Below, one piece after another: positions 7,055-19,904 of a stretch of 25,636 bases of DNA. The translations under genes were made by a program, and so were the position numbers. The stretch's first letter is position 1. Each line of letters starts with the position of its first letter. Source of the stretch: a virus (Duplodnaviria; Caudoviricetes); the IMG/VR virus record IMGVR_UViG_3300012347_000041, positions 1-25,636 of that record, one strand, 5' to 3'. The notes beneath the pieces are model-generated. The model saw only the letters and a program-made list of their open reading frames with translations, was not told the origin of the DNA and searched no databases.

Positions 7055-7621
7055 TTATTTACCTTCTAAAAAACGTTGAACGAAATTGCCCTTGCGTACA
7101 GAGGCAGCATCCATCGCTGCTTGTGCAGGAGCACCCTTGCCTTTTAGGAATGCTTCAATAGAGCTGATACGAGCCTCTTTCGGAGCTTCCAAGCCAAGTT
7201 TTTTGCAGCCATATTGAGCCATAGCGTCTAAATCCATTTCGGCATGATCGAACGCACCGATATGAGCAGACAGCTCGTTATATAGCTTAGCTTTTTTAGC
7301 CAAATTCTTTTCGACTTTACGCACGATTTCGGCAGTATCCATACCGTTAGCACGTTCGTCTTCTTTTGGCTCTTCTTTTTCGCCACCTTGAGGAATCGGA
7401 TCTTCTTCTTCGTCCTCAACCTCATTAGGGGCTACTTCATCACCGTCAGGCTTAGACATATCTTCGTCTGCAACTGCTTCCAAGCCAGCAGCACCGTAAG
7501 ATTTACCTGTCAATTCCTGAATTTTTGCCAATTTAGGCATAACTTCTTCGAGGAACTTATGAACTTCCTCTAAAGTCATGTCAAGCTTTTCAGCTCCGAC
7601 TTCTTTGTTTTCTTCAGCCAT
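7055..7621 (-). CDS. Putative in-frame nested scaffold protein (188 aa)
   Basis: Internal AAGGAG-N9-ATG (aaggag tttttaaac ATG GCT GAA) just after the end of the protease domain. Confidence 0.55.
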
Positions 7622-8665
7622 GTTTAAAAACTCCTTGTTATCTACTGTAAAAGTGAAATGATCCAAAACTGCCACATCGGGACCCATACGTCCGTTTTCG
7701 ACTAGGGCTAGATGATTGCCTCGAATATCCCGTTGCACATAATCATAATCTATCCCGTTGTAACTACCGGGGGCATATTCATATCTGCATCGGTATCCGC
7801 AGGACAACTCCTTTTTTCCATTTGCAATGAGGTTAGCCATTGCTTCGGAGAATACCTTGATATTACCTTTTAAAACGTCACCGTCAAAATAAACGTCTTG
7901 ACCGATAACACCTTGCACACCTTTTTGCTCGGATGGAGTAAGACCCTCATCTTCGCTGCCCAACATGACATGATTATCGATCCAAGGAATCAACTTGAAT
8001 GAATCGATACAATCATTGGTTCCCAATTCCTCTGCAGGACGGTACACCATATAAACCCTGTCAGGATCTGCTGCTGGATCGATTGATCGACCCGAATAAG
8101 GGAATACCCCGACCATTGAAAGTGGATTGTCTTTTACCTCAAACCACCCATTAGTGTCGTACTCTCGCTTATCCATTCCTGAACTAGCCATTTCTTTAAT
8201 CTCCAATTCAGGGAAAATAGGGCTTGGGGCATCTTCTAATGAAGCCCAAACGAATGAGTCATGCTCATAATTAAGCTTAGGAATGAATTCTCCGTCAGCA
8301 CAAGTGTATATACAAAGATTAGGCTCCTCGTAAATTAACTGGAGCCCTGTTTTTGGCGCATGACCGATTTCTTCTCGGCATTCACGAATTGCGCCTTCAA
8401 TAGCTGCTTCTCCTACTTCTACATGACCACCGGGGAAACTCCACGATTTGTCATCGGATCTACGCATCCAAAGAATTTTATTGTCAGCAACAAAGATTAC
8501 AAAAGCCACCAAATCAGTATTGCCAGCCCCTAAATCTACTCCGCTATGCTTTCGAGCGTTGGTATAAGCAGCAGCCATAGCCTGTTTAGGGTCATGACCT
8601 GCCTTAATCATTTCAGCAATGTTTTCCTGAATTACCTCTTTTGAGGAACCTTCTTTGAGTGGCAT
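7055..8665 (-). CDS. Prohead protease/scaffold (DUF2213-like) with an N-terminal NUDIX hydrolase domain
   Basis: Start set at ATG 8665 (TAATG overlap). It has a complete Nudix box, [24 protein letters not shown] (GX5EX7REUXEEXG). DUF2213-type motifs are [26 protein letters not shown] and [18 protein letters not shown]. The C-terminus is acidic and scaffold-like. Confidence 0.85.
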
Positions 8666-9027
8666 TAGCAAATCCTTCCAGTCTGAGTCGGGATATTGGT
8701 CACGTTCAATAAAACAGTGGCTTCCCTAGTGTTTCCAGCACTTGTTTCAAATAATGCTCTTATTGTATAGAGTTGATTGATTTGTGGCTCAGGAATTATT
8801 CCTTCGGAGATTTGAACCGAAATTACTTTGCCAGCAGCAGCTACTTGTTTGTCAGGGAAAGTGATTGGGGTTGGATTTATGGCTGGACCCAAAAGCACTA
8901 ATCCTAGTTGATCGGCAGTAACCGAAACAACGTCAGTAATGATTTCTAAAGTGTCGAGCAAATAGGTGCAGTCAATATCGTAATAAATTGACTCGGAGGT
9001 CCGTTTTTCTAAAATGTAACTATTCAT
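8665..9027 (-). CDS. Putative fibre adaptor / Ig-like anchor protein (120 aa)
   Basis: Start moved to ATG 9027 ([20 protein letters not shown]), overlapping the upstream stop. The K...E..YY.ID pattern and beta-rich sequence recall fibre-docking adaptors. It is the last gene of the fibre cassette. Confidence 0.5.
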
Positions 9028-10339
9028 GAGCTTGCCAATAATCCTGTCTTGGTGAAACGTGCCAGTAATCCAATCTTTGCGCTGCTTGCCAATTTGTCGG
9101 TCTTGGTGAAACGTGCCAAACTCTGTCCGACTTTTGGAAAATAGGAGCACAAACGTAAATATCTACCGCATTGCCCGATTCTACTACTGTGACTATGACA
9201 TAAGCAGTCGAATTAGTCGAATCTTGAGCGTTTGCAGCTTCGTCAATGTTTAGAGAGGCTGTGACTACCGTACTGATAATGTCTTGAGCTAATCCAGCTT
9301 CCGATACATTCGCCTGAGCGATCATGTTTGCAATTACTTGATCTTGAGCGTCTGCGCTCTCGAGCATTTGCAAATAAGCCGTCATTTGCTGAGACGCAGC
9401 ATCCGAAGCCAATCCTGACTCAACTACCGCCAGCAAAGCGATTATGTTTTGAGTTTGCACGTCTACGGCATTGGCAGCCTCAATAACAGCCAAATAAGCC
9501 GTTGCATTTTGAGAGACGCTATCTTGTGCGTTGGCAGCTTCAGTTACTGTAACCGTAGCAATCATATTTTCGCTTACGGTGTCTTGAGCATCTGCAGCTT
9601 CAGAAACAGTCAAGTCAGCCGTCATATCCTCAGAAACCGTATCTTGTGAGTCTCCAGCTTCATTTACAGAGGTTGGGGAGCTCATATTCTCTGACTGCTC
9701 ATCGACAGCATTTCCAGCCTCAAGTACGTCAACAGGCGCAGCCATTTCTGCAAACTGAGAATCTTCAGCCAAGGCAGACTCAGAAATAACTCCCTGAGCT
9801 GTCATATTCTCAGAAACGTCATCAACAGCGTTTGCAGCTTCTAAAACGGTTTGCGGAGCAGACATGGTTTCAGATTGATCGTCTAATGCGTTTGCAGCCT
9901 CAGAAACGTCAACTGGTGAGGTCATTGACTCTGATTGATCGTCAGTAGCACTGCCAGCTTCAGATACTGCTACTGGGGCATTCATGATTTCTGATTGGCT
10001 ATCCTGAGCGTTGGCAGCCTCTACTACTGAAATAAGCGCAGACATTGACTCAGATTGAGTGTCTGTAGCTGATCCAGCTTCGCTAATTGTCAATGGCGCA
10101 GCCATAGTCTCAGACTGTGTATCTGTTGAGCTTGCAGCCTCAGCGATTGTGAGGGGTGCGATCATAGCTTCAGAAACCGCATCTACGACAGACGCAGACT
10201 CAGAGACAGTGCTTGAAATCAAAATTACTACGGTTATGGCATCTTGAGCAGCCCCTACCTCAAGTACGGCAAGCTGCCAAATTGCTACTCCACTACCCCC
10301 GCTAAAAGGCGCAGACGATATGGGGCTAAAGCCAAACAT
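9020..10339 (-). CDS. Acidic protein with 19 tandem 20-aa repeats
   Basis: 439 aa. N-terminus MFGFSPISSAPFS; repeat consensus xEAANAQD.QSE.M.A...V; Trp-rich duplicated C-terminus. Confidence 0.8.
   Translation of the reverse strand: MFGFSPISSAPFSGGSGVAIWQLAVLEVGAAQDAITVVILISSTVSESASVVDAVSEAMIAPLTIAEAASSTDTQSETMAAPLTISEAGSATDTQSESMSALISVVEAANAQDSQSEIMNAPVAVSEAGSATDDQSESMTSPVDVSEAANALDDQSETMSAPQTVLEAANAVDDVSENMTAQGVISESALAEDSQFAEMAAPVDVLEAGNAVDEQSENMSSPTSVNEAGDSQDTVSEDMTADLTVSEAADAQDTVSENMIATVTVTEAANAQDSVSQNATAYLAVIEAANAVDVQTQNIIALLAVVESGLASDAASQQMTAYLQMLESADAQDQVIANMIAQANVSEAGLAQDIISTVVTASLNIDEAANAQDSTNSTAYVIVTVVESGNAVDIYVCAPIFQKSDRVWHVSPRPTNWQAAQRLDYWHVSPRQDYWQAHE
9046..9118. repeat. 19-bp exact direct repeat GTCTTGGTGAAACGTGCCA (9046-9064, 9100-9118)
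   Basis: Encodes the duplicated WHVSPR peptide at the end of the repeat protein. Spacing is 54 bp, which is in frame. Confidence 0.85.
9125..10264 (-). repeat. 19 degenerate 60-bp coding tandem repeats
   Basis: Residues 26-405 parse into 19 gap-free 20-aa units with invariant E at position 2 and D at position 8. The period is visible as aligned columns in the 60-nt lines. Confidence 0.85.
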
Positions 10340-15196: not shown

Positions 15197-15368
15197 CGGT
15201 TTCTTTAGCTGCTTTCTTCCAAATAGCTAGGTATTCGGGAGTCATAGAAGCTGCTACCTTTGCGTCTTGTTCTTTTTCGAGATCATTGCCATATTCAGCC
15301 ATGTCTCGCCCGTTCAGCTCTTTAAGCCATTCGGCTCGAGCTTCTTCAAAAGTCATCTTCTTAGGCAT
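15180..15368 (-). CDS. Hypothetical small charged helical protein
   Basis: 62-aa ORF with an AAGGAG RBS; overlaps both neighbours. Confidence 0.6.
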   Translation of the reverse strand: MPKKMTFEEARAEWLKELNGRDMAEYGNDLEKEQDAKVAASMTPEYLAIWKKAAKETDAEGN

Positions 15369-15573
15369 CTTCTTCTCCTTTCTTCATAAGGAATAGCTCC
15401 CAGTGAGCAGGGTGCATTCGACTTTTACCAGTTTCATAGTTACTCCATCGTGCTTGAGTAGTATAGATCAAACTAGCTGCTTTGGATTGGGATAAATGCC
15501 CTCGTGACTCAATAATCTCTTGAGCAGTGGGGACGTATCCCATCCCCCCTCTATTTCGTTTGTTGGTAATCAT
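15361..15573 (-). CDS. XRE/Cro-family HTH regulator
   Basis: I..SR..LSQSKAASLIYTTQARWSNYETGKSRM is an XRE helix-turn-helix. ATGA overlap at 15570-15573; an alternative start exists at 15543. Confidence 0.75.
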   Translation of the reverse strand: MITNKRNRGGMGYVPTAQEIIESRGHLSQSKAASLIYTTQARWSNYETGKSRMHPAHWELFLMKKGEEDA

Positions 15574-16169
15574 GCGTAAGCTGTCCAGTTGGCTTCTTCG
15601 TAAATTGGGACCCCAGCCACTACTGCAACAGGATTGATCCTGTAGGCACTGCTGAAGCTATTGACCCTGAAGTAAACGCTCTCACCACTAGCTTGAATGC
15701 GAACCCTTCTAGCCTCTCCGACAAAACGATTAGGAGCTGGGACGCAAACACCTTGATCTGCATATCCATTACCTTCACGCATTTGGCTGATTTCACGAAC
15801 TTGCATCATTTGACCGCTAACCGCAACAACTTGGTAGTAATCAATGTTTGTTTGGTCGTAACCCCACATTGCTTGGAAAATGTCACCGACATTTACCGCA
15901 GCATTACGGTTTGCAGCCACACGCTCAGCTCTACGCTGGGCAACACGATCACGCTGGGCAACAATACCAGCAATGTATTCGGCAATGTAAGCATTCATAC
16001 GCTCAGCATTGTTGAAGCGGTAGGCGAAATCAGCACGATTTCTGCGACCACTGAATCCCCTTGCGACATTGCGCTCAGGATCTCCAAAGACCTCGATACC
16101 CAAAGCTTCGTCTTGAGCCAACAAAACATAACCTTCAGGGACAAATCTACAACGCTCTTGAACTCTCAT
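15570..16169 (-). CDS. Hypothetical protein (GDIF...WGYDQTNIDYYQVV motif), Lys- and His-free
   Basis: 199 aa with a CACGAAAGGA-N7-ATG RBS and its own promoter. It has 0 K, 0 H, 2 T and 24 R (manual count). Confidence 0.8.
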   Translation of the reverse strand: MRVQERCRFVPEGYVLLAQDEALGIEVFGDPERNVARGFSGRRNRADFAYRFNNAERMNAYIAEYIAGIVAQRDRVAQRRAERVAANRNAAVNVGDIFQAMWGYDQTNIDYYQVVAVSGQMMQVREISQMREGNGYADQGVCVPAPNRFVGEARRVRIQASGESVYFRVNSFSSAYRINPVAVVAGVPIYEEANWTAYA

Positions 16170-16208
16170 TTTGATTTCCTTTCGTGATTAATCAAAGACA
16201 ACACCTTC

Positions 16209-16236
16209 AGTATATACCTATTTAGCATCGGGTCAA
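16209..16236 (-). promoter_or_regulatory. Leftward sigma70-type promoter
   Basis: TTGACC (16236-16231)-N16-TATACT (16214-16209), with an A-rich UP-like tract upstream. Confidence 0.65.
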
Positions 16237-16302
16237 GTGTTTTTTGATATTTTTTTGAGGTGTATTACAAATACAACACCCTAAAAATATTTCTCAAACC
16301 TC

Positions 16303-16331
16303 TTGACAGTATGCTTAATTAGTATGATACT
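16303..16331 (+). promoter_or_regulatory. Rightward sigma70-type promoter
   Basis: TTGACA (16303-16308)-N17-GATACT (16326-16331), with an AT-rich upstream tract. Confidence 0.7.
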
Positions 16332-16368
16332 AAGACTGTAGTTTGTTCTTCCACGAAAGGAGATTGAA

Positions 16369-16524
16369 ATGAATGCTTTGTTGGTTGTTCGAGGTTTCGG
16401 TAATCGGGTTCCCATCCAAGGTGAGCCAGTCCCGTTCCTCCAGTATGTCTTCGGAGCCGAACGTGCTGAGCGAATCATGCAGGGTTTGGATCGTAATTAC
16501 GCTGTTTTATTCCAAGGAGCTTAA
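16369..16524 (+). CDS. Hypothetical 51-aa protein (below the ORF track cut-off)
   Basis: CACGAAAGGA-N7-ATG. Translation MNALLVVRGFGNRVPIQGEPVPFLQYVFGAERAERIMQGLDRNYAVLFQGA*. Its 3' end supplies AAGGAG for the next gene. Confidence 0.7.
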   Translation: MNALLVVRGFGNRVPIQGEPVPFLQYVFGAERAERIMQGLDRNYAVLFQGA

Positions 16525-16526
16525 AA

Positions 16527-16721
16527 ATGAGAAACGCAAATAGAGTCATTGATCGCCAAGTCAATCAGATCTTCAATCGTATTGGCAACGGTATCCAGTT
16601 CGACATCATGGACCTCCGTTACATTGACGCTGCAGCCCGTAATGTTTTGCTTGCTGGTGGCAGCTTAGAGCTGGCTGAGGAAGCAATGGCTGGAGCAATC
16701 GAAGTTTACCGAGTCAACTAA
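16527..16721 (+). CDS. Hypothetical protein
   Basis: 64 aa, AAGGAG RBS; no K, H or T. Confidence 0.75.
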   Translation: MRNANRVIDRQVNQIFNRIGNGIQFDIMDLRYIDAAARNVLLAGGSLELAEEAMAGAIEVYRVN

Positions 16722-16741
16722 TTCCACGAAAGGAAAAAATC

Positions 16742-16993
16742 ATGAGATACCAAATTGTTGCTTTAGACCAAAACGGCTGGGGTGGTTTTAACCTCGACAT
16801 CCCAAGCGTAGCAGAGTGCATTCAGGCAATGGCTGCACAAGGCTACAGATGTCGTAGGCTTGAAGATCGTGACTACTTGCGTAGCGAGTTGATCGGTCAG
16901 CCAGTCTTTGAGGGCTTAGTCGGTCCAATGTATAACGGTGAGGGCTGCATCCGTTACGAAAACCAAGCAGCCTATGACGCAATGAGCAACTAA
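16742..16993 (+). CDS. Hypothetical protein
   Basis: 83 aa, CACGAAAGGA-N7-ATG; no K, H or T. Confidence 0.75.
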   Translation: MRYQIVALDQNGWGGFNLDIPSVAECIQAMAAQGYRCRRLEDRDYLRSELIGQPVFEGLVGPMYNGEGCIRYENQAAYDAMSN

Positions 16994-17008: not shown

Positions 17009-17218
17009 ATGGAATACGCAATCGGAACCCTGTTTAAGACTCGTGCCAAAGCTCCAAGGCTTTGCGAAGTAGTCGACATTTATAAGACTTACAACTCTGC
17101 TGGTGAGCTGGTTAAAACCCGTTACGTTGCGACTCATGATTTTATGGGTCAAAAAGTGACTGACTACGATGTCGTAGCCACCACTATTGCAATGGGTCTT
17201 ATCCCAGCAGCATCTTGA
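17009..17218 (+). CDS. Hypothetical protein
   Basis: 69 aa, ACGAAAGGA-N7-ATG; overlaps the portal 3' end convergently by 20 nt. Confidence 0.7.
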   Translation: MEYAIGTLFKTRAKAPRLCEVVDIYKTYNSAGELVKTRYVATHDFMGQKVTDYDVVATTIAMGLIPAAS

Positions 17219-19904
17219 GCTTCTTGTCACCGTCTTGTATCCTGCCTTCAGCGACTACCTTCTTAGCAAACGAAATCATCCGTTCACGCAAAGCAGCTCT
17301 GTCGGTGTAGGTAGGAACTTGGTTGATCTTGCCTTCAGTCAAGTAAGGAGGATCACCAGTGTTATTGTTTACAACGGTGAACTTCACTCTAGGATTGTCT
17401 TTGTAGTGCTCAGCCAGCTTCTTGATGTTTTCGGAAGCTTTGATATGAGCGTCAAGCTGAGTATCCAATCGAACGGTACGGCTGCGCTTCATGTTGAGCA
17501 TGACAGCTAGATCAAGGGTCGCATTGGTGTAAACGATGTCTACGTCACCCTTAGTAATGTCAAGGGTTTGATTGATCTTGTCAGTAGCGGATTTGAAATT
17601 GCCTAGCACTGAGTCAAAGGTCAATGCGTCATCTTTCAGACCGAGCAGTTTACGAGCCATCTTTTCAGACTCAGATTTGCCTGATCCGCTGCCACCAGCA
17701 GTAAACATGGTCGCAGAATTGTCACCCGCTGCTGCCTTCTTCTCTAGGGCATTCTTCCAAATTACTTTTGAGAGGTATGAGCTAGGCTCGTGTACGGCTG
17801 CAGCCAATGATGAGTCTTTGGCAAAACGTGGGTCCAGCTTCTTAACTGAGTCAGGGTCAATGATATTGCCATTGGTTTCCTGATACTTTTCGATCAAAGC
17901 CTTTTCGTTATTGCGGATCGCTGCGTAAAATGTTCCCTCAATTCTTCGCTCTTTGGGAGTAAGGTTTGGGGATCGCTCAAATCCATGCTTGTCGATGTAT
18001 CCACCGTTAGAAAGCTTTTGGACTTTTTGTGTCCCTTGCTTTGGCTGCTCTTTTCCCTGCTCAAGCGGAAGATTTTGCTGAGCAGACTCAGGAGACTTTT
18101 TTTCTGCCTTGGCTGGCTCACTCGCTACTTCTTTTTTTTTAGACTCTGATTTAGACTTAGGAGCTGCACCAGCCCCGCCCGAACCAAATTGACCGTTCTT
18201 GGCTCGTGGGTGATCTTCTTCTTTGAACTTAGAATCGTCTTGGGCAACGCAGTTAGGAACTTGTTTCCCATCCTTGTCCTTCATGCCGATTTGCTCGTAA
18301 CCTTCCCAGCAAGGGTCTTTATCTTGTGAAACGGAAAACTTTTCGCCAAGGGCTTCGCCTCCGACTTCAGGATCTGAATAGCTTTGATCTTCAACGCTCT
18401 TGAAATCTTCGTCAGCCAATTCTTCGGCTTCAGGACGATCATCTTCCATAATGCCGATTTCGTTGTATCCGCTAGTCTTGTCAGTTGCCACACGTTGACG
18501 CTCATCTTCGCTCGAGATAGCACCTGAAGTAATAAGCACTTGACCCGCTTGAGCTTTTGCCAAGTTGGTAGCAGCCAATTCTGCTGCAGTAGGTGTATCG
18601 AGTGGGAGCCAGTTCAAAGTGGTCTCAACTTCCATCTTGATCTTGAGCTGTGGCTCAACGTAAGACTTGATTACCAGCGCATGATGACGCTCAGCCAATG
18701 GGGTGAGGTCATGGGTTTGGATTGACTCAAGCAGCTCGTGATAGCTGGCTTCTTCGTACTCTCCAGTGGAATTGAATCCTTTTGGAGTTGTACCGATCAA
18801 TTTGGTTGCTGGAACTCCAGCGATAGCTGCCACCAGTTGATACTGGGTCATGATAAGGGAGTCAAAGTCAGCAAGCGAAGTATCGAATTGAGAGAACTCA
18901 TCGCCTTCCTTATCGCCTAGCTTGACACCGTAGTTATCACGATAGGCAGCCCATTGCTGCAAGCGACCAATAGCTGCATTGGTGTCACCCATTACGGCTT
19001 CCATGTCAGTAAGCCATACGGTTGTACGCTTGGACATTGCCAACTGGGGAGCTTCATTGGAAACACGTTCCGCAGCGTATACACGCTCCATTAACTGTTG
19101 AGTCAAAGGCACACCGCCATAAATGTATTGAGGTTTCAATACATCGACAGGATCGGCATGACGGAAAATGATGAGGTGCGAACGGTGAACCTTCTTACCG
19201 TTGATGAGCCACCAAGTAGGCTCATAGAAATGTAAGGTATCAGGCTGGCTAGAGCTGGCATTGTCCAGCATTGGAGCAGTCCAGTACGGGTCGACTTGTA
19301 CGATTCCCTTGTAGCTGCCAGCAGTAATGCCATCGATATTGAATGGCTTCTCGTAATACTGAGGATCGGTAGATTGCACTTTAAACATGGCAATACGAAT
19401 ACCGAAGATACGTCCCTTGCGGATAAACTCACGCATATTCCAATTTAGTCGGAAGGAACGATCATAAGAATTAATGATCTTGACGGCTTCAGGGTCCAGC
19501 TCATCGCCATCCACTGAGACCACGTTGTAGCCTTTACGGATTGCATCATCCCCCGGCATCGCACAAGCTTTATTAATCAGCCAGTTTTGAGCCAAGATAC
19601 CGCAGAGTTGAGCCCCAATGAATCCTTGGGAGGCATACCAATAAACCACTGCATCGGAAACGCTATTGCTTCCCGCTGCGTACATTTTGAATCCAGCCAC
19701 TCCATTGCTAGAGTCATCCATAGCGAACTCGCCAGTAAATACTGGCTGCTGCTTTTGAAGTGCTGCGAAAGTGTCAGCTACTTTAAATCTTTTAGCGTCA
19801 GGATCAAACATATCAAAGGCATGAGTGCTGAATAAGCTTTTCTTAGCCTTCGGCTGAATTGGTTCTTGTTGAACCTCGGTCTTCCCTCTTAGCCACTTAA
19901 ACAT
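17199..19904 (-). CDS. Portal protein (DUF1073-like) fused to a C-terminal extension ending in a Zeta-toxin-like P-loop domain
   Basis: Follows TerL. Portal motifs P.DDAIRKG, GR.FG, YEP..W.ING..VH.S.L, VAA.AG.P.TKL.G.TP.GFNSTGE and L.W.PL run to about aa 480. An acidic linker, DPCWEGYEQIG...VPNCV, HPRAKNGQFG and MFTAGGSGSGKS follow. Confidence 0.85.
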   Translation of the reverse strand: MFKWLRGKTEVQQEPIQPKAKKSLFSTHAFDMFDPDAKRFKVADTFAALQKQQPVFTGEFAMDDSSNGVAGFKMYAAGSNSVSDAVVYWYASQGFIGAQLCGILAQNWLINKACAMPGDDAIRKGYNVVSVDGDELDPEAVKIINSYDRSFRLNWNMREFIRKGRIFGIRIAMFKVQSTDPQYYEKPFNIDGITAGSYKGIVQVDPYWTAPMLDNASSSQPDTLHFYEPTWWLINGKKVHRSHLIIFRHADPVDVLKPQYIYGGVPLTQQLMERVYAAERVSNEAPQLAMSKRTTVWLTDMEAVMGDTNAAIGRLQQWAAYRDNYGVKLGDKEGDEFSQFDTSLADFDSLIMTQYQLVAAIAGVPATKLIGTTPKGFNSTGEYEEASYHELLESIQTHDLTPLAERHHALVIKSYVEPQLKIKMEVETTLNWLPLDTPTAAELAATNLAKAQAGQVLITSGAISSEDERQRVATDKTSGYNEIGIMEDDRPEAEELADEDFKSVEDQSYSDPEVGGEALGEKFSVSQDKDPCWEGYEQIGMKDKDGKQVPNCVAQDDSKFKEEDHPRAKNGQFGSGGAGAAPKSKSESKKKEVASEPAKAEKKSPESAQQNLPLEQGKEQPKQGTQKVQKLSNGGYIDKHGFERSPNLTPKERRIEGTFYAAIRNNEKALIEKYQETNGNIIDPDSVKKLDPRFAKDSSLAAAVHEPSSYLSKVIWKNALEKKAAAGDNSATMFTAGGSGSGKSESEKMARKLLGLKDDALTFDSVLGNFKSATDKINQTLDITKGDVDIVYTNATLDLAVMLNMKRSRTVRLDTQLDAHIKASENIKKLAEHYKDNPRVKFTVVNNNTGDPPYLTEGKINQVPTYTDRAALRERMISFAKKVVAEGRIQDGDKKLKMLLG

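Follow-up and report, generated by a model that had tools for sequence, protein, structure and literature searches.

Phage counter-measures against PARIS/AriB, P2 OLD, retron-Eco7 and PrrC are among the described systems closest to the locus presented here, where the same conflict, with transfer RNAs (tRNAs) for Lys, Thr and Ser(NGA) as targets, may be at work. Those phages supply resistant tRNAs or repair the damage by tRNA ligase (PrrC), whereas in IMG/VR virus record IMGVR_UViG_3300012347_000041 (positions 1 to 25,636, the whole stretch analysed, hereafter the window) no tRNA gene was found and the proteins themselves appear rewritten: four adjacent genes, for proteins of 199, 51, 64 and 83 amino acids (aa), do without Lys and His, almost without Thr, and without the TCN box of Ser codons. 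For phages, avoidance has been described in which tRNAs they encode, the codon frequencies of phage genes showing no difference (PMC10264068). Lysine deserts, known from ubiquitin-proteasome components, pupylating bacteria and toxin A subunits, are Lys-free in the same way (0 Lys in 397 residues here), but at this locus the loss extends to Thr, to His and to the synonymous TCN box, and across adjoining unrelated genes. Plasmid leading regions, which shift to optimal codons (10.1101/2025.04.03.647016), and the early and late codon classes of phages likewise give first-expressed, anti-defence-type genes a codon usage of their own; unlike in plasmid leading regions, whole amino acids are dropped here, and the capsid gene makes the opposite choice of Ser codons. 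No report of early phage genes purged of whole decoding boxes was found in the literature searched, which consisted mostly of titles and abstracts and scarcely covered subscription journals.

Codon exclusion in four adjoining genes

The four genes are the first gene leftward (199 aa, 15570..16169, minus strand) and the first three genes rightward (51 aa, 16369..16524; 64 aa, 16527..16721; 83 aa, 16742..16993; all plus strand) of two divergent predicted promoters. A recount agreed with the sequence-only reading of this DNA, a model's earlier note, in coordinates, lengths, 0 Lys, 0 His, 2 Thr (both ACA), 12 Ser and the 24 Arg of the 199-aa protein. Over the 393 codons after the starts (397 residues), with expectations taken from 38 other window genes, the counts were as follows: Lys, 0 against 21.3 expected (p 1e-9); Thr, 2 against 26.8 (p 1e-9); His, 0 against 4.6 (p 0.023, weak alone); Ser TCN, 0 against 19.4, with AGY at 12 against 8.5 (p 6e-7); Leu CTN, 6 against 16.3; Arg, 43 against 15.0; Asn, 29 against 19.4. 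Tyr is enriched, and Ile, Met, Gly and Cys are not depleted. The Ser split, all 12 codons being AGY, is a synonymous signal that the sequence-only reading had missed. The 199-aa gene lacks Lys, His, TCN and CTN, and has Thr solely at the family-invariant Thr107 and at Thr196; the 51-aa gene lacks Lys, Thr, His and Ser; the 64-aa and 83-aa genes lack Lys, Thr and His and have one and three Ser, respectively, all AGY. Binomial p values for Lys, Thr and His together are 8e-10, 1e-5, 2e-4 and 1e-3 for the four genes; among the 42 window genes one other, coding for a 439-aa repeat protein, reaches 1e-3, and loses this rank once TCN is added.

The missing triplets are frequent in the two other sense frames (AAR 27 and 11, ACN 37 and 2, TCN 42 and 26), and the genes' own positional base composition would give 10 AAR, 15 ACN, 15 CAY and 10 TCN. 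The effect is therefore in frame, and base composition, already discounted by the sequence-only reading, is ruled out together with avoidance of DNA motifs. Decoding boxes are lost whole, with opposite splits (AAR is missing and AAY plentiful, whereas in the His/Gln box it is CAY that is missing and CAR that is plentiful). A post-hoc scan of all three-residue subsets placed His/Lys/Thr best for the four genes (p 8e-21); since the fibre genes reach p 2e-20 for Glu/Lys/Arg in the same test, amino-acid counts alone do not discriminate, and the weight of the case rests on synonymous codons and homologue contrasts.

All four reading frames are under purifying selection and are real genes: the ratio of nonsynonymous to synonymous differences (pN/pS) is 0.15-0.36 for the 199-aa gene (12 homologues), 0-0.31 for the 51-aa gene (10 homologues, 67-100% identity), 0.17-0.45 for the 64-aa gene (9 homologues) and 0.23-0.36 for the 83-aa gene (3 homologues). 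A 56-aa frame overlapping the 51-aa gene was rejected as the coding frame, having stops in 4 of 4 diverged homologues.

Derived state and recurrence in related phages

The contrast with homologues is sharpest for the 199-aa gene. At the DNA level 218 distinct homologues were collected and 25 dropped by length, leaving 12 at no less than 58% identity (close) and 181 below (distant). Lys is absent from 9 of the 12 close homologues and from none of the 181 distant ones (Lys 4-28), so the objection that homologues everywhere might share the composition fails. Pooled TCN:AGY is 5:89 in the close set against 1381:971 in the distant set, five members of which have no TCN. Among 53 protein clusters, the 29 closest have Thr 0-5 and His 0-3, 16 of them being without Lys; the other 24 have Lys 5-23 and Thr 6-17. 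In a tree for which 44 of the 54 sequences were used, the Thr/His-poor rows form one clade of 28 (support 99/99), within which Lys-free and Lys-bearing rows are intermixed on unresolved branches, so that the order of Lys losses and regains is not readable. An alignment, as the sequence-only reading had proposed, located the replacements at family-conserved columns: those that are mostly Lys, His or Thr in 169 outgroup rows (K42, K45, K76, K80, K156, K168, H49, H90, T115, T134) became Arg, Val, Asn or Ala in the clade. Ser101, TCN in 124 of the 169 outgroup rows, became AGY or Met; Thr107, invariant in all 169, was kept, and is ACA in 10 of 10 Lys-free rows. A general rule that retained Thr is always ACA was rejected: an 80-aa family keeps ACC/ACT-type codons, and Thr196 is ACT in an AT-rich homologue of the 199-aa gene. 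Distant homologues of this gene are present in many phage, plasmid and chromosomal contigs, and those in GTDB are distant as well. In a phage of 35% G+C content (GC) with another portal type, the 199-aa homologue has no Lys, no TCN and 9-10 AGY.

The other families agree. The 64-aa gene is Lys-free in 20 of 24 clusters and without Thr and His in all; forms with 6-10 Lys exist in the family. Five of the 6 close clusters of the 83-aa gene have no Lys; its 114 short distant representatives average 4.1% Lys and 5.0% Thr, and only 2 of them lack Lys, Thr and His. TCN:AGY in the 80-aa family is 11:34 in 12 close sequences against 264:50 in 53 distant ones. An unrelated gene of 165-167 aa occupies the slot of the 199-aa gene in nine loci (L182-L186, L190, L193, L199, L200) and is called LPD29-like here from weak matches to PF18847 (25.4 and 16.9 bits against a cut-off of 27). 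Its 7 close sequences have no Thr, 0-2 Lys and TCN:AGY 1:84, and its 26 distant ones 5-31 Lys and 170:174; the Ser residues retained by the purged gene, as many as 16 in 165 aa, are encoded only by AGY. Some distant homologues have no TCN yet normal Lys (L167, L171, L173 and L078 for the 199-aa gene; L207, L209 and L212 for the LPD29-like gene), possibly through independent avoidance of Ser(NGA) in other lineages.

The scan of related phages suggested by the sequence-only reading found purged early genes again, in 12 unrelated families. A phage group (71 loci) and an outgroup of similar GC (145 loci) were both fetched with five purged families as queries, and a gene cluster was counted as purged at K+T+H+TCN <=5%. 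This threshold was passed by 17 of 139 small gene clusters of the group and by 2 of 458 of the outgroup (p 9e-10). The 17 make up the 12 families, 7 of which had never been locus-search queries; with one gene per family (957 codons) they hold 2 Lys, 5 Thr, 2 His, 4 TCN, 33 AGY, 22 CTN and 42 TTR. The two outgroup genes lie at L210 3335-3583 and L339 3853-4002 (no Lys, His or TCN; 1-2 Thr). By position, 11 of 19 first genes behind a promoter are purged against 9 of 41 later genes (p 0.009); a strict positional effect was ruled out by Lys-rich genes between purged ones. One unpurged gene that stands first behind a promoter (L298 15734-15934, minus strand) has ACA for all five of its Thr codons. 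In record G001 (77% complete) there is another early cluster, whose promoters have the same shape and which holds more purged genes.

Selection on outcome was avoided by choosing genes for an extended ribosome-binding box (55 clusters, 4828 codons, 67 loci; control, 129 small clusters). Two wrongly called overlapping frames and a few genes from outside the cassette are among them and work against the signal. These box genes have 2.3% Thr against 5.8% in the control, and ratios to control of 0.72 for TCN, 0.60 for CTN, 0.61 for Pro, 0.86 for Lys and 0.81 for His (not significant). The 16 box genes chosen on low Lys only have 0.7% Thr, 0.2% His, TCN:AGY 9:51 and CTN:TTR 22:58 (control, 535:301 and 555:477); in the 39 Lys-normal ones Thr is 2.9% against 5.8% and TCN:AGY is ordinary (145:86). 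The loss thus has two layers: Thr is lost widely, together with Pro and CTN, and on top of this a deep purge removes Lys and TCN. Capsid and decoration genes favour TCN (TCN:AGY 24:7 and 7:1), the opposite Ser preference, so the Ser pattern is not optimal-codon bias; the Leu shift may be so in part. Outgroup genes with a similar ribosome-binding site are ordinary (Lys 7.2%, Thr 5.5%, TCN:AGY 93:74).

Proposed bypass of disabled tRNAs and rival explanations

The pattern is firmly established; its cause we infer. We lean towards the reading that the purged early genes stay translatable when host tRNAs for the excluded codons are cut or chemically blocked. Because Ser survives only through its second isoacceptor family and whole boxes vanish, the selected unit is most likely the tRNA. 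On this reading the promoters would become active as the DNA enters the cell; the host would inactivate tRNA-Lys, tRNA-Thr and tRNA-Ser(NGA), and with less certainty tRNA-His and tRNA-Leu(NAG), by anti-phage or toxin-antitoxin enzymes, of which there are probably several; the purged genes would get round the block by using AGY for Ser, and Arg, Gln, Asn or Val for Lys, His and Thr; and one or more of their products would lift or outrun it, after which ordinarily coded late genes could be read. Lineages avoid different sets (the early genes of L017/L101/L102 and of L103 keep Lys and lack His, with TCN:AGY 6:22 and 6:14; loci of 38-40% GC are low in Thr and normal in TCN), and several effectors acting together would therefore suit. 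Enzymes with such targets have been described: for AriB the main substrates are Lys(UUU) and Thr(UGU), with weaker cleavage of Asn(GUU) and Thr(CGU) and minor products from His(GUG) and Pro(UGG) (10.1101/2025.02.04.636281); P2 OLD favours Thr(UGU) (PMC12445682; 10.64898/2026.07.10.737580); a bacterial Schlafen cuts Lys(UUU) (PMC13056530); mycobacterial nucleases including VapC cut Ser(NGA) and spare Ser(GCU) (PMC10264068); and Gly and Thr tRNAs are blocked by FaRel2, to which a reporter devoid of Gly and Thr codons is insensitive (10.1101/2024.07.05.602228). FaRel2 alone does not fit, Gly being normal in purged genes. The sequence-only reading had proposed either translation without Lys, Thr and His tRNAs or escape from modification of those side chains. 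The tRNA half is strengthened in that the TCN-to-AGY shift, and partly a CTN-to-TTR shift, accompanies the loss of Lys and Thr, and conserved Lys, His and Thr columns are replaced. Its suggestion of PARIS fits in the avoidance of Lys(UUU) and Thr(UGU/CGU) codons, and not in the enrichment of Asn or the ACA kept at Thr107.

Several points weigh against the bypass of disabled tRNAs. No single enzyme described in the cited work covers the whole excluded set. Cleavage of Asn(GUU) by AriB does not agree with the enrichment of Asn, nor does the preference of AriB and P2 OLD for Thr(UGU) agree with a drop that is the same for all four ACN codons (among box genes the ratio is 0.36 for ACA and 0.39 for all Thr). 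The His signal is weak: the capsid gene is without His too, and the box-class ratio is not significant. The capsid gene shows part of the Leu shift too (CTN:TTR 11:19); many of the homologous rows are almost identical and do not count as independent; 8 of the 19 first genes are unpurged; and Lys-rich genes are interspersed among purged ones. A host search found no host and no effector, the terminase having a match in 3 of 172 genomes of one family (best 68%). The excluded codons are used without restriction in late genes, and a search for tRNA genes found none in the window and none in 27 loci, the best record of which, G001, is 77% complete; the reading therefore requires that the block be only partial or short-lived, or that one of the purged proteins act as an antidote, and both are hypothetical.

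The main rival is physiological shortage: starvation or dormancy of the host would leave these tRNAs scarce or uncharged, no defence enzyme being involved, and the first genes would have adapted to what remains; we regard it as unlikely. Serine starvation in B. subtilis gives the same UCN-versus-AGY split, ribosomes pausing at UCN and not at AGY, and UCN isoacceptors drop most in stationary phase (10.1101/564526), which also counts against the bypass; in Synechococcus, lost expression of tRNA-Leu(TAA) leads to passive phage resistance (PMC11726456). Thr is halved even in the Lys-normal box genes, as a shortage might produce. Several observations speak against starvation: Ile, Met, Gly and Cys, whose pathways overlap with those of Thr, Lys or Ser, are not depleted; side-chain nitrogen is raised in purged genes and not lowered (0.47 against 0.39 per residue); the lineages avoid differing sets; and outgroup genes with a similar ribosome-binding site are ordinary. 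Self-inflicted shut-off, with a portal-fused, virion-delivered enzyme blocking some tRNAs or synthetases so that only purged genes are read at first, has little chance of being right. It would draw on the 15 of 15 compared portal or head-associated proteins that end in a zeta-like P-loop or a small-alarmone-synthetase domain, and on the HD_4 gene in the early cassette of the group's synthetase loci. The synthetase matches Tas1 (6ox6, E 6e-15), its only match in PDB, and Tas1 is a maker of (pp)pApp, not a tRNA modifier (10.1101/2024.07.05.602228); the closest solved relative is thus not a tRNA-pyrophosphorylating, translation-targeting toxSAS. Moreover, both domains also stand beside homologues of ordinary composition (zeta in L044, L155-L157, L168 and the Lys-rich L017/L101/L102; synthetase in L009, L013, L072, L080, L094 and L154), 4 of 5 HD genes examined are of ordinary composition, and one codon pattern accompanies two unrelated enzymes.

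Side-chain avoidance by the logic of lysine deserts, with Lys, Thr and His shed to evade conjugation, acetylation or phosphorylation, we hold to be similarly improbable. Charge is preserved by Lys-to-Arg replacement, the tree shows Lys to be lost in a labile, bimodal fashion, and lysine deserts have been described in pupylating bacteria and the ubiquitin system; TCN:AGY ratios of 1:84 in the Ser-rich LPD29-like gene and 5:89 in close 199-aa homologues are left unexplained, Ser and Tyr remain, and Tyr is even enriched. This half of the sequence-only reading is accordingly weakened, Ser being kept but only as AGY. Ribosome-dependent mRNases of the RelE/HigB/YafQ type have codon specificities of their own, and escape from them would agree with an avoidance that is strictly in frame; the avoidance of whole decoding boxes, opposite splits that follow tRNA identity, and the keeping of ACA make it very improbable. 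Family trait, chance or drift is largely refuted by the sequence comparisons: the genes are short, relatives have ancestry in common and the fibre genes give a similar post-hoc p for other residues, but distant homologues of the tested families are ordinary, and the purge is found in 12 unrelated families with only 2 of 458 outgroup clusters over the threshold.

If the bypass holds, first-wave proteins written in a reduced code that needs no targeted tRNA would be a further phage answer to tRNA-destroying immunity, a proposal for which we see the chances as about evenly balanced; it would be an undescribed way round such immunity, beside tRNA supply, repair or nuclease inhibition. The missing codons of first genes would then record which tRNAs hosts destroy, including uncultured hosts; codon gaps would be a sequence-only flag for anti-defence genes; and sequence could show which tiny early genes must work while translation is attacked. 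Even if starvation is the cause, 12 unrelated folded proteins that evolve under purifying selection while nearly free of Lys, Thr and His would be an unusual natural case of reduced-alphabet coding.

Layout of the cassette and neighbouring genes

The window is from a tailed phage and has genes for terminase, portal, MuF, protease, capsid and sheath (Pfam, PHROGs); by its capsid it is closest, among isolates, to the Burkholderia phages Bm1 and BCSR129 (57-58%). The cassette lies between portal and MuF and is presumed early from its promoters, which match the sigma70-type consensus only (leftward, TTGACC-16-TATACT, 16209..16236, minus strand; rightward, TTGACA-17-GATACT, 16303..16331, plus strand). 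Conserved spacer motifs lie within both, ATGCTAAATAGGTAT at 16214-16228 (minus strand) and ATGCTTAATTAGTAT, an operator-like imperfect palindrome, at 16311-16325 (plus strand); the operator-like imperfect-palindrome spacer ATGCTWAATWRGTAT is common to the early promoters, both in the window and four copies in G001. The common ribosome-binding box CGAAAGGA precedes the 199-aa gene (16177..16184, minus strand), the 51-aa gene (16354..16361, plus strand) and the 83-aa gene (16727..16734, plus strand). The purged block has the sharp limits claimed by the sequence-only reading: on the left, an XRE-like helix-turn-helix gene of ordinary composition (15361..15573, minus strand; K5 T5 H3; HTH_31 match of 18.7 bits, under cut-off), a candidate regulator beside the promoters; on the right, a 69-aa gene with the same box, also ordinary (17009..17218, plus strand; phrog_28041; K5 T8 H1). 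In a check of expression, twelve runs contained just 5-11% of the sequence words, and the contigs of 4 RNA libraries covered early genes as much as late ones, which is uninformative on transcription or timing.

None of the four proteins had a match in Pfam, NCBIfam or PADLOC, and only the 199-aa protein matched a PHROG (phrog_37844, unknown function). Its model (AlphaFold, predicted local distance difference test score (pLDDT) 91) has an N-terminal three-strand-plus-helix domain, a 35-residue helix and an SH3/Tudor-like barrel; the 83-aa protein (AlphaFold, pLDDT 97) belongs to a widespread unnamed family with the consensus RxELxGQPxFxGLxGPM...RYE. Fold searches were made with these two proteins, and the wide VIA search with the 199-aa model, for which the best VIA Z was 7.2, with weak SH3/Tudor-like rows; Foldseek against PDB gave no match at E<=0.001 for either model. 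In all, Pfam, PHROGs, NCBIfam, PADLOC, ESM Atlas and the fold searches returned only uncharacterised viral relatives and those weak rows, so that the host-takeover or anti-defence role put forward by the sequence-only reading gained no support from them.

Two further window genes stand out. The head-maturation protease (DUF2213; 7055-8671, minus strand) has an N-terminal NUDIX domain, DUF6321 being added in relatives, and the 439-aa repeat protein (9020-10339, minus strand) is acidic, with one Lys and no family match in Pfam or PHROGs. The portal carries a C-terminal zeta-toxin-like P-loop domain of about 260 aa (17199-17987, minus strand; Pfam 18.5 bits, under cut-off), for which no sequence relative was found in PDB; the same slot in relatives holds a Tas1-like small alarmone synthetase (L018 6846-7757, L103, L190). 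Fusions of MuF or portal proteins with zeta-like kinase or RelA/SpoT effectors are described in polyvalent-protein systems (PMC5512222), to which the zeta-like portal of the window, the Tas1-like relatives and the weak LPD29 match of the slot-mate bear a likeness; such domains account for the neighbourhood and not for the codon purge, and are present beside unpurged genes too. Zeta-type loci have no HD_4 hydrolase gene in the early cassette. The Tas1-like loci of the group have one (L018 5167-5688, L103 8166-8681, L104, L106, L190 1152-1682, L193), and the pair is probably a virion-delivered toxin with an early antidote; the HD gene of L190 and L193 is Thr-free and almost TCN-free.

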